7,863 nt of DNA from a virus (lineage: Duplodnaviria; Heunggongvirae; Uroviricota; Caudoviricetes): positions 1-7,863 of the IMG/VR virus record IMGVR_UViG_2548876950_000005. The stretch is one strand, 5' to 3'. Below are positions 1,165 through 3,530 of the stretch, one piece after another (the first letter of the stretch is position 1; every line of letters starts with the position of its first letter). The position numbers and the translations under genes were made by a program. Under the pieces are notes generated by a model. It ran no database searches, had not been told where the DNA came from, and saw only the letters and a program-made list of their open reading frames with translations.

Positions 1165-1193
1165 AAGATAACTCAAGTTATAAAAAATAGCAA
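1165..1193 (-). promoter_or_regulatory. Candidate pR: -35 TTGCTA (1193-1188), 17-bp spacer, -10 TATCTT (1170-1165), reading into cro
   Basis: Read on the reverse complement. The -10 overlaps operator site OR1. The same -10 hexamer in the same operator context recurs at pL. Confidence 0.4.
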
Positions 1194-1230
1194 TAACCTT
1201 TGTTATTTTACTTTGGATAACCGTAGTTAT
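1168..1230. promoter_or_regulatory. OR operator region: three 14-bp palindromes ATAAC-N4-GTTAT at 1168-1181, 1193-1206 and 1217-1230 (centre spacing about 24-25 bp)
   Basis: Read directly: ataacTCAAgttat, ataacCTTTgttat, ataacCGTAgttat, between the divergent cro and cI starts. pRM is expected to overlap the cI-proximal site. Confidence 0.65.
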
Positions 1231-1242
1231 AGATTTGTGGGT

Positions 1243-1950
1243 ATGAAAACATTCGCAGAAAGACTAAATGCAGCCATGAGCTCAGCAGGTGTGTCGCAAT
1301 CACAGCTTGCTGACATGGTTGGAATATCTCAGCCAGCCATACAGAAGATGTCATCCGGTAAAACAAACGGATCTCGCAAGATGGTTGAATTAGCCAATGC
1401 TTTAAAAGTACGCCCTGAATGGCTTAGCTCTGGTATTGGTGAAATGAGGGATGGTACACATGAAGAACCATCCAATGTCCGTGAATCATCTTTAAAAGCT
1501 GTGGTATGGGAAGATATTAAAAGAAACGATGACGAGTTTGTCGCGTTGCCTCTTCTTAACGTTTCGCTTTCAGCTGGAAGCGGTAGCTGCGAGCTAGAGG
1601 AATCATCAGAGTTCTCTTTGGTTTTCAGAAAGTACTATCTGAAAAAGATGGGGGTATCTGAAAGATCAGCCAAGCTAGTTAGGGTTGTAGGGCAAAGCAT
1701 GGAACCAACGCTTCACGACGGAGATGTTGTTGGCGTTAACACACAAGATACCACAATCAGAGATGGTAAAACCTACGCTATTTGCCAGTCTGATTTGTTA
1801 CGAGTAAAAACATTAATCGCCACCCCAACATCGGTGATAATCAGATCAATAAATCGCGAAGAGTACCCAGATGAAGTAATGGATAGAGATGAATTTAATG
1901 AAACCGTAAGGATTATTGGCAGAGTATTCTGGTCGTCTCATAGTTGGTAA
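1243..1950 (+). CDS. cI: CI-like prophage repressor (N-terminal XRE-type HTH, C-terminal S24/LexA-like autopeptidase domain)
   Basis: HTH QSQLADMVGISQPAIQKMSSG; Ala-Gly in SLSAGSGS; catalytic-serine context GQSMEPT; downstream Lys (LLRVKTL). ATG 1243 preferred over the track TTG 1213 because the operator at 1217-1230 would otherwise fall in the coding sequence. Confidence 0.85.
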   Translation: MKTFAERLNAAMSSAGVSQSQLADMVGISQPAIQKMSSGKTNGSRKMVELANALKVRPEWLSSGIGEMRDGTHEEPSNVRESSLKAVVWEDIKRNDDEFVALPLLNVSLSAGSGSCELEESSEFSLVFRKYYLKKMGVSERSAKLVRVVGQSMEPTLHDGDVVGVNTQDTTIRDGKTYAICQSDLLRVKTLIATPTSVIIRSINREEYPDEVMDRDEFNETVRIIGRVFWSSHSW

Positions 1951-1987
1951 CCAGTGGCCTGAAGAGACGTTTGGGTGAGGAGGATAG

Positions 1988-2329
1988 ATGGCGTTCACTG
2001 ACCTTGAATATCAAGCGGTCAAAAAAGAAGTTCACCAATTCATTGAAAGCATAAGGCCGCCTGAACATATCCGCAATGAACTGGATATTGTTTATAGCAT
2101 CAATGACCAAACGATAGATATCGGCGAACAGCGCCCCGTGTGGCAGGGCAATCCAGGTGAAACAAACATCCTGCCATCAGCAAGAATCAAGTACATACGT
2201 TCTCTGGATAGATGGAAAATCTATTGGATGCGGAAGGATATGAAATGGCATCAGTACAGTACTGAACTTTCGCTGACTGATGCGCTTGAAGTTGTTAGGG
2301 CTGACCCAGCCTGCTGTTTCTTTAGGTAA
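1988..2329 (+). CDS. Hypothetical protein, 113 aa, directly downstream of cI (rexA-position cargo); possibly a small conserved DUF-family protein
   Basis: Strong SD GGAGG 5 nt upstream of ATG, 37 nt after the cI stop. C-terminal motif RWKIYWMRKDMKWHQY…ACCFF resembles, from memory, a small bacterial DUF family (possibly DUF3024); unverified. Confidence 0.6.
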   Translation: MAFTDLEYQAVKKEVHQFIESIRPPEHIRNELDIVYSINDQTIDIGEQRPVWQGNPGETNILPSARIKYIRSLDRWKIYWMRKDMKWHQYSTELSLTDALEVVRADPACCFFR

Positions 2330-2351
2330 GAGAAATAGATTTAGGAGATGA

Positions 2352-2380
2352 AAGGTCGCAGAGGTGCGGCCTTTTTTATT
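2352..2380 (+). terminator. Rho-independent terminator after the cI-orf113 unit
   Basis: Stem AAGGTCGC/GCGGCCTT (one G·T wobble), loop AGAGGT, then TTTTTTATT. Confidence 0.6.
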
Positions 2381-2389
2381 GAGAGTGGA

Positions 2390-2448
2390 TCTTGAACGGA
2401 AATTCTCAAGACTTGAGTCTTGCATGCAAATCAATTCCTGGATAAACT
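2390..2448 (+). promoter_or_regulatory. Inverted-repeat cluster and candidate promoter upstream of orf173: IR TCTTGA-N10-TCAAGA (2390-2411), IR CAAGAC-N4-GTCTTG (2407-2422), TGCATGCA palindrome (2421-2428); candidate -35 TTGCAT (2420-2425) and -10 TAAACT (2443-2448)
   Basis: Read directly. Lies in the 150-bp gap between the terminator and the next ATG. Confidence 0.3.
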
Positions 2449-2480
2449 CGATCTGAGTCAATAACTTAGAGAGAGAGCAA

Positions 2481-3002
2481 ATGGCAAAGTCAAACGTTAG
2501 CGTGCAGGCATTCAAGGACTTCCTTGAAGAGCTTATGTCGCTGAACATAATGAAGGAGGCCACCGCTCGAAATTTAAAAAACTCATCCGCTCGCCTCTTA
2601 ACGGTAGTCCAAGAAGAGGAAATGGGTGATGTTACTCAGCTTGATGTGAATGAGCTTGCCGAGCGATACATCAACGCAACTGAGCCGAAGCCTAGCGACA
2701 GCAGCATTACTGCATATAAAAGCCGCATGGAAAGTGCAATCAAAAAGTTTGTAGCTTTCCAGTCTGGTGAAGAAATCCCATACACTCCGATTGACAAAGA
2801 ATCCAGTGAGGAAAAAGATTTGGCTGGCGAACCAACAAAAGTCGAAGGCAAGGCTAATGCACTTCATACCTATGATCTTCCAGTAGTTCTTCGACCTGAA
2901 TCAGGGGTTACAGTAACGATTAAAGGCATTCCTAACGATATCACAAACGAAGAAGCCGAACGCATCTCTTCAATTCTGAAGGTTTACGTTCGGCCTCAAT
3001 AA
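2481..3002 (+). CDS. Hypothetical acidic protein, 173 aa (rexB-position cargo)
   Basis: Long ORF on the same strand as cI, between cI and OL/pL. Purine-rich GAGAGAGAG upstream of ATG. No family recognised. Confidence 0.55.
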   Translation: MAKSNVSVQAFKDFLEELMSLNIMKEATARNLKNSSARLLTVVQEEEMGDVTQLDVNELAERYINATEPKPSDSSITAYKSRMESAIKKFVAFQSGEEIPYTPIDKESSEEKDLAGEPTKVEGKANALHTYDLPVVLRPESGVTVTIKGIPNDITNEEAERISSILKVYVRPQ

Positions 3003-3305
3003 TGCAAAAGCATTCAGCACAATGTCCAACTCCCCAGTCCGACATTGATGCTGTTTAACCAGAGCCTCCAAAAGGAGCCCTTGTTAAGGTACACAATATT
3101 TGCGATGTAACCTTAGCGCGTCTGGTACATTTTTTCAAGCGGTTGTAGGGCTGCCGCCAATATGAGAAAACACAGATGTCTACATACAATTTGAATGACC
3201 AATTCGATCGAGAAGTTCATGTGAATGCCTATGAACGGATAAGGCATGGAAATCTTGAACATGTGTGTGAGCATTATCGCTCAAGGCCACACCGCTAATC
3301 ATCAA

Positions 3306-3332
3306 CCCGGCCACCGAGCCGGGTTTTCTTTG
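3306..3332 (+). terminator. Rho-independent terminator upstream of OL/pL
   Basis: Stem CCCGGC/GCCGGG (3306-3311 / 3318-3323), loop CACCGA, then TTTTCTTTG. Confidence 0.5.
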
Positions 3333-3467
3333 CCTCACGTTCGCCCTCCCATATTTAATAGCCGCAAATGTGGTAAACCGCGAACCAACTCACCAGCAAT
3401 ACCCCCTCCAACTACAGACCAATCTGCAACATTTACAAAAATAAAATACCTTTGCTATCCATCACTT

Positions 3468-3527
3468 ATAACTTATTTACCACAAAATATAAACTAAGTT
3501 ATTGACCACACCCATAACCTAAGTTAT
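3468..3527. promoter_or_regulatory. OL operator region: ATAAC-N4-GTTAT-type sites at 3514-3527 (perfect), 3489-3502 (one mismatch) and a degenerate site near 3468-3481
   Basis: Same 14-bp palindrome family as the OR sites; spacing between the two good sites is 25 bp. Confidence 0.55.
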
Positions 3528-3530
3528 CTT
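3502..3530 (+). promoter_or_regulatory. Candidate pL: -35 TTGACC (3502-3507), 17-bp spacer, -10 TATCTT (3525-3530)
   Basis: The -10 overlaps the promoter-proximal OL site; oriented towards nutL and the N-like ORF. Confidence 0.5.

Follow-up and report, generated by a model that had tools for sequence, protein, structure and literature searches.

In phage 434, the right and left operator regions (OR and OL) each contain three 14-bp sites, in which the outer 5 + 5 base pairs (bp) are contacted and the central 4 are non-contacted (PMC1636474), and the lambda operator is a 17-bp site (PMC5977221). In the half-site of the Shiga toxin (Stx) phage 933W, A-C at positions 4-5 is invariant and precedes a pyrimidine; OL of this phage contains two sites, and cooperativity is apparently lacking (PMC3317979). 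We analyzed a 7.9-kb stretch of a lambdoid early region (IMG/VR record IMGVR_UViG_2548876950_000005, positions 1 to 7,863; this whole stretch is called the window below), which is 100% identical to a prophage in Escherichia coli Z1323CEC0019 (NZ_CP148401.1). In the window, cro and cII are transcribed leftward, and cI, N, and cIII rightward; a family of 14-bp palindromes with the sequence ATAAC-N4-GTTAT is located between cro and cI and again upstream of the N-like gene. The lambda operator and promoter positions, its pRM promoter, and its leaderless cI mRNA were used for comparison. From the recurrence, conservation, and covariation of the palindromes, it is very probable that they are the operators of cI and Cro in a lysis-lysogeny switch of the lambda/434 type.

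Palindromic sites at OR and OL

Exact matches to ATAACNNNNGTTAT (ATAAC-N4-GTTAT) were found four times in the window, compared with 0.01 expected, and 0 of 200 shuffled sequences reached four. The sites assigned to OR and OL are listed below.

OR1, 1168-1181: ATAACTCAAGTTAT, exact match, with both half-sites invariant in 7 lineages
OR2, 1193-1206: ATAACCTTTGTTAT, exact match
OR3, 1217-1230: ATAACCGTAGTTAT, exact match, with half-sites invariant among the lineages
OL1, 3514-3527: ATAACCTAAGTTAT, exact match, kept in 9 lineages
OL2, 3489-3502: ATAAACTAAGTTAT, one mismatch (A at position 5), 25 bp upstream of 3514
Degenerate OL3, 3467-3480: ATAACTTATTTACC, left half-site ATAAC (3467-3471) only

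The sequence-only reading of this DNA had placed three 14-bp palindromes between cro and cI, and exact copies indeed begin at 1168, 1193, and 1217. Its count of two to three sites upstream of N was also fair, OL1 being exact, OL2 carrying one mismatch, and OL3 retaining a half-site only. When mismatches were allowed, the sequence at 3489-3502 was the sole further good site in a meaningful place. The OR sites are spaced by 25 and 24 bp. As in lambda, three sites 24-25 bp apart are located between divergent cI and cro, a second set is found at the promoter of the N operon, and OL is approximately 2.3 kb away from OR. Unlike the 17-bp sites of lambda, however, the window operators are 14 bp in length.

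Conservation across related loci

The related loci comprised a first set of 81 (IMG/VR added 80) and 80 more from a second scan, and a cI search of IMG/VR matched 169 stretches. The DNA identity of the cro-cI segment with that of the window was 98% for Stx1a_10051, 94% for SH2026Stx1, 78% for PA28 and a set of Stx1a phages, 76% for a Salmonella contig, and 71% for HK639; further relatives were found in species-representative genomes as Kluyvera, Enterobacter, and Entomohabitans prophages. The segment containing OR and the N-terminal part of cI was present in 164 of 5426 complete E. coli genomes.

Every locus with the cI recognition helix SQPA[IV]QKM (81 + 80 loci) carried three sites at -74/-75, -49/-50, and -25/-26 from the cI ATG, and these loci had the OL1/OL2 pair and the same promoter hexamers wherever the downstream sequence reached. 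In addition, all of the 38 further distinct variants from IMG/VR (38/38) had three sites at the fixed distance from cI. Conservation of the palindromes in prophages with homologous repressors, which had been named beforehand as a test of the operator assignment, was thus observed throughout both sets. Among representatives of seven lineages, 27 of the 30 half-site columns of OR were invariant, compared with 14 of the 53 other columns (Fisher p = 1.3e-8). The corresponding values for OL were 16 of 20 and 4 of 35 (p = 5e-7). The central four bases and the spacers between operators varied freely across lineages, and the pattern of conservation at the window operators is exactly the 5 + 4 + 5 contact pattern of 434 (PMC1636474). 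Furthermore, each of the 282 exact copies in 633 kb of same-group loci fell at OR or OL. The lineage comparison revealed no further conserved element repeated at both OR and OL.

All three variable half-site columns of OR belong to OR2 (variants ATTAT, GTTGT, ATAAG, and TTTAT), and OL2 begins with ATAAA in nearly every lineage (L001-L092). The middle sites are therefore consistently the least consensus-like, and these operators appear to be kept weak. In all lineages but the most divergent one (L083), the ATAAC of OL3 was retained at a distance of 20-22 bp upstream of OL2, and OL3 of HK639 (ATAACTTATGTGAT) has one mismatch.

Two further elements near the operators were noted. The sequence at 1158-1171 (ATAACCAAAGATAA) was rejected as an additional operator, having two mismatches, overlapping OR1, and not being kept in HK639 or Kluyvera. 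Its ATAAC half-site (1158-1162) is situated one helical turn from the left arm of OR1 and near the predicted pR start; this half-site is kept in the E. coli lineages and absent from HK639 and Kluyvera. At 3430-3460, a conserved A-rich tract (ACAAAAATAAA) approximately 69 bp upstream of OL1 is followed by a degenerate left arm and then a conserved GTTAT right arm (GCTAT in the window, 3454-3458). This element may be a weak fourth operator or the target of a different factor.

Covariation of the half-site with the recognition helices of cI and Cro

The two genes flanking OR are the following.

cI repressor, 1243-1950, plus strand: 235 amino acids, Pfam HTH_3 and Peptidase_S24, recognition helix S29-QPAIQKM-36
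cro, 1131-907, minus strand: 74 amino acids, Pfam YdaS_toxin/P22_Cro/HTH_3, recognition helix TQPAVHKW

Heteroimmune relatives, whose cI N-terminal domains are 49-57% identical, retain the divergent cro, sites of the 5-N4-5 form, and the spacing of approximately 25 bp. Four combinations of cI helix, Cro helix, and half-site were found.

cI SQPAIQKM, Cro [ST]QPAVHKW, half-site ATAAC
cI SQAAIQKI, Cro [ST]QQAVYKW, half-site ACAAC/AAAAC
cI AQSS[VI]N[KR]L, Cro [SA]QSTICDW, half-site ATCGC
cI AQPSVWKL, Cro KQPSVWAW, half-site ATAGC

In the heteroimmune loci L007, L008, L009, and L012, no ATAAC-N4-GTTAT site was present anywhere at one mismatch or fewer. The A[CA]AAC half-sites of L009 (Trabulsiella) were one-sided only, and no clear operator was found in L012 (Yersinia YP3), which is without a divergent cro. 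A profile-based locus search for heteroimmune relatives was also tried; it returned the same specificity group only, adding more conservation and no new covariation class.

The covariation is the strongest evidence short of a footprint that cI and Cro would both read the palindromes, and the earlier proposal that the sites define the immunity specificity gains support from it. The Cro helix shares Q-P-A with the cI helix, and P31A and M36I are the only differences between the cI helix-3 octamers of the ATAAC and ACAAC groups. The cI/Cro family may thus provide a natural specificity series, namely Q-P-A-I-Q with ATAAC, Q-A-A-I-Q with ACAAC, Q-S-S-V-N with ATCGC, and Q-P-S-V-W with ATAGC. Residues at helix-3 positions 2-5 would re-code operator positions 2-4 in this series, in parallel in the non-paralogous cI and P22-Cro-type Cro and within a fixed frame and promoter geometry; we regard the chances for and against this proposal as evenly balanced.

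Similarity of cI to the 434 repressor

When the N-terminal domain of cI was searched against the PDB with phmmer, the best match was the DNA-binding domain of the 434 repressor (E = 3e-8), and the lambda repressor matched with an E value of 0.75 only. The alignment with 434 is gapless over cI residues 6-67, with 22 of 62 residues identical (35%), and each window residue number equals the 434 number plus 2. The DNA-binding domain is accordingly 434-like and not lambda-like: it is a five-helix HTH_3/XRE domain homologous to residues 1-69 of the 434 repressor. As in 434, the operators are 14 bp in length with two-fold symmetry, the outer 5 bp of either side being conserved and the central 4 variable, and cI and Cro share the first residues of helix 3.

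The 434 half-site consensus is reportedly ACAA(G/T), and in the work of Aggarwal et al. (1988) Gln28 of 434 is said to read the adenine at position 1, and Gln29 position 2. The equivalent of Gln28 is Q30, the Gln at the first helix-3 position, which was invariant in 11 of 11 aligned N-terminal domains; A was found at operator position 1 in every half-site. At the equivalent of Gln29, Pro goes with T at operator position 2; with C at that position, cI has Ala and Cro has Gln. If the specificity series is true, P31A, at the residue equivalent to Gln29, could be a one-residue, one-base immunity switch.

The window system also differs from 434 in several respects. Its half-site is ATAAC instead of the ACAA...TTGT form, which places it in a different immunity group, and its helix 3 reads Q-P-A-I-Q-K, compared with Q-Q-S-I-E-Q in 434. 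Its Cro is a P22_Cro/YdaS family member and, in contrast to 434 Cro, no paralogue of the repressor domain, and the third OL site is degenerate.

The C-terminal part of cI matched Peptidase_S24 (E = 9e-18). Candidate motifs of this family are G-Q-S152-M and V-K189, the putative catalytic dyad, together with a putative cleavage site, A111-G112, in the linker. With the S24 domain, the Ser/Lys dyad, and the Ala-Gly site, cI resembles self-cleaving repressors of the LexA/cI type, and RecA-dependent induction of the prophage would be possible.

Predicted promoters

Promoters were predicted at the level of hexamers by comparison with the sigma-70 consensus, both by reading the sequence and by a consensus promoter scan with a score threshold. 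Three candidates were found.

Candidate pR, 1193-1165, minus strand: -35 TTGCTA (1193-1188), 17-bp spacer, -10 TATCTT (1170-1165), predicted to drive cro and cII
Candidate pL, 3502-3530, plus strand: -35 TTGACC (3502-3507), 17-bp spacer, -10 TATCTT (3525-3530), predicted to drive N and cIII
Candidate pRM, 1207-1235, plus strand: -35 TTTACT (1207-1212), 17-bp spacer, -10 TAGATT (1230-1235)

The pL candidate was listed by the scan (9/12), and its homologous position is annotated as 'putative pL' in the HK639 record. pR and pL have one and the same layout: the -35 hexamer begins with the final T of O2, O1 fills the spacer, and the GTTAT arm of O1 supplies TAT, the first half of the -10 hexamer, at pR on the minus strand as well as at pL. 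TATCTT had been predicted at both early promoters and was found at 3525-3530 (plus) and 1170-1165 (minus). Two details of that prediction required correction. The -10 hexamer is not embedded in the operator, since it overlaps the 14-bp core by 3 bp (TAT of GTTAT), and the string aagTTATCTTt is not present at both promoters, since pR reads gAGTTATCTTT; the string common to the two is AGTTATCTTT (3522-3531 on the plus strand and 1173-1164 on the minus strand). All lineages retained the form TAT+NNT at the -10 hexamer (TATCTT, TATTTT, TATCCT, and TATAAT), which in the most divergent lineage is TATAAT at both pR and pL.

On the pRM side, OR2 overlaps the pR -35 hexamer by 1 bp and abuts the pRM -35 hexamer, and OR3 is located in the pRM spacer with a 1-bp overlap with the pRM -10 hexamer. 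The pRM hexamers were kept after OR2 and OR3 in all lineages, as TTTACT (TTGAAT in L083) and TA[GTAC]ATT, respectively. The -10 hexamer TAGATT is 7 nucleotides ahead of the cI ATG (1243), and the predicted pRM start falls at this ATG or one nucleotide before it, so that the cI mRNA appears to be leaderless. No conserved Shine-Dalgarno sequence for cI was detected across the lineages compared. The hexamers predict a weak pRM with OR2 centered at approximately -43 and OR3 at approximately -19, and O1 is at approximately -17 of pR and pL. These positions, the pRM -10 sequence TAGATT, and the predicted leaderless cI mRNA are all as in lambda. We are somewhat less confident of the exact promoter assignments than of the identity of the operators.

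Proposed mechanism of the switch

Binding, transcription starts, activation, cooperativity, and the order of occupancy are inferred here from sequence, and the following scheme is proposed. Each 14-bp site would be read by a cI dimer, and likewise by Cro. The outer 5 + 5 bp (ATAAC/GTTAT) would be contacted by helix 3, S-Q-P-A-I-Q-K-M in cI and T-Q-P-A-V-H-K-W in Cro, and the central 4 bp would not be read base by base. cI on OR1 and OR2 would cover the pR spacer, the first half of its -10 hexamer, and the edge of its -35 hexamer, thereby excluding RNA polymerase, and cI on OL1 and OL2 would shut RNA polymerase out of pL in the same way. Such promoter occlusion is expected from the geometry of the sites.

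OR2-bound cI would stand against the pRM -35 hexamer, at the activating position known from lambda, and probably helps pRM, from which cI would be made on a leaderless transcript. At high cI levels, OR3 would turn pRM off. Cro would act on the same sites, presumably with the preferences reversed. The weakness of the middle sites points to cooperative filling that starts from O1, and the geometry is compatible with cooperativity, with activation of pRM through OR2, and with looping between OL and OR. Repression would be lifted when cI cleaves itself at A111-G112 under stimulation by RecA. The half-site matched to helix 3 would set the immunity group, which would include HK639, PA28, SH2026Stx1, and several Stx1a phages.

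Alternative explanations

Several points weigh against the assignment of the palindromes to a cI/Cro switch with these promoters. A literature search found no binding, footprint, or transcription-start data for this immunity group. The independent heteroimmune lineages are few: ACAAC is represented by two loci, ATCGC by four, and ATAGC by one. pR and pRM each match the sigma-70 consensus at 8 of 12 positions, are below the scan threshold, and were unlisted. In addition, the GenBank record of HK639 gives as 'putative pR' the sequence TTGGGT-N17-AGTAAT, which is 17 bp further downstream. This annotation favors a variant in which the sites are operators and pR is 17 bp nearer to cro, so that OR1 would cover the -35 hexamer and TATCTT would not be the -10 hexamer of pR. 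However, the equivalent hexamers in the window, TTGAGT-N17-AATGAC, offer no usable -10 sequence, being without T at position 6, and the HK639 pair is thus not conserved in the window, whereas TAT+NNT after OR1 is kept in every lineage and has become TATAAT in L083. The unshifted pR also has exactly the geometry of pL, which is backed by both the HK639 record and the scan. The shifted pR is therefore unlikely.

The palindromes might instead be bound by Cro or another factor only, with cI reading a different and less obvious sequence. The covariation of the Cro helix with the half-site fits this idea, and all binding evidence is indirect, but helix 3 of cI covaries with the half-site equally, cI has a helix-turn-helix domain of the 434 type whose solved homologue binds 14-bp sites of the 5 + 4 + 5 form, and no other repeated conserved element is present at both OR and OL. 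We consider this explanation to be quite improbable. As for chance palindromes without function in an AT-rich promoter region, near-palindromes of the 5-N4-5 form in the cro-cI intergenic region were indeed not above the shuffled expectation, being about as frequent as in shuffled intergenic sequence. It is therefore the recurrence of one half-site, and not palindromy itself, that carries the signal. The excess of exact copies over expectation, their fixed spacing, the lack of any copy outside OR and OL in the same-group loci, and the invariance of the half-sites while centers and spacers diverge leave chance a negligible probability, and the conservation already refutes it.

Relation to known immunity groups

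The suggested comparison with known lambdoid operators was carried out, and the half-site of the window differs from those of 434, lambda, BAA2326, and 933W. The operators of BAA2326, unlike those of the window, are weakly symmetric. 933W likewise has a lambdoid switch of an Stx phage (Stx2), and the A-C at positions 4-5 of its half-site is shared with that of the window. In contrast, its sites are of odd length with a central position, the half-site spacing is different, and positions 1-2 differ (PMC3317979), which separates it from this group. No 933W record was among the 60 matches listed in the protein search (spread over 440 matching records).

HK639, PA28, SH2026Stx1, and Stx1a_10051-type phages have the same cI and Cro recognition helices, three OR sites, two to three OL sites, and the same promoter hexamers, and are predicted to be homoimmune with this prophage. 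They differ from it in the DNA of cI and cro (71-98% identity) and in the genes between cI and OL, and in HK639, put RNAs take the place of N. The records of this group carry annotations for cI and cro, and the operators were unannotated in the records inspected. With regard to these annotations, the 'putative pR' of HK639 (HM208537; L001, 3745-3773) is 17 bp off the position homologous to its own 'putative pL', and cI of SH2026Stx1 (MG986485; L003, 3482-4051) is annotated from an internal Met, dropping the helix-turn-helix domain.

A full-text search with six operator 14-mers in both orientations gave no match; the paper by King et al. on HK639 (2011, J Bacteriol) was outside its scope and may note the HK639 operators. 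The specificity ATAAC-N4-GTTAT is apparently undescribed so far, and a system of this kind is itself well known.

Other features of the early region

The gene identities of the early region were confirmed, namely cI (HTH_3 + Peptidase_S24), cro (YdaS/P22_Cro), cII, the N peptide, and the cIII thermometer; the window shares N/nut, cII, and cIII with its thermometer with lambda. The features beyond cI and cro are as follows.

cII, 809-510, minus strand
Intrinsic terminator, 3304-3325, plus strand: strong (z = -3.25), ends the cI-side operon ahead of OL/pL
nutL, plus strand: boxA 3577-3585, boxB 3598-3614, upstream of N
N-like antiterminator gene, 3770-3976, plus strand: GTG start, Pfam N_peptide, preceded by nutL
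cIII thermometer (Rfam Lambda_thermo), 4872-4930: 88.5 bits, precedes a cIII-like open reading frame (ORF)

The position of Lambda_thermo before the cIII-like ORF confirms the direction of the pL operon. The boxB hairpin (GGGGATGATTCGTCCCC) is the same in nutL (3577-3614, plus strand) and nutR (898-862, minus strand), and both also contain a boxA-like GCTCTTTAA. With 68 amino acids, the N-like protein is short, and its gene has the GTG start after GGAGG; the protein matches positions 44-100 only of the Pfam N_peptide profile, the C-terminal part, and its arginine-/lysine-rich N-terminal segment is distinct.

A DUF3024 gene (1988-2329) adjoins the 3' side of cI at the position of lambda rex, and its product matches the PADLOC candidate defence model PDC-S43 (E = 2e-41). 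Downstream of it are a terminator-like hairpin (2350-2376), an ORF of 173 amino acids with unknown function (2481-3002, phrog_2602), and the strong terminator at 3304-3325, followed by OL. The cassette from the DUF3024 gene to the terminator is common to Stx phages of the VT2-Sakai type, whose cI differs. At the left edge of the window (1-56), approximately 2.6 copies of a 21-bp tandem repeat (GCTCCTGCCCCACCCCGGGCA) lie inside the reading frame of a replication gene on the minus strand, which continues beyond the edge of the window; the repeat may encode a Gly/Ala-rich protein repeat or represent origin iterons.

Significance

The accepted picture of lambdoid switches is unchanged by this result, which is correct and useful, if unsurprising. 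It supplies an operator consensus and a promoter map for a widespread immunity group that includes HK639 and several Stx1a-converting phages, and the consensus predicts which prophages are homoimmune. The matched variants of cI, Cro, and half-site form a compact natural dataset on the evolution of helix-turn-helix specificity. In the Stx1a phages, occupancy of OR and OL by the repressor would set the threshold of prophage induction and, probably, toxin release.

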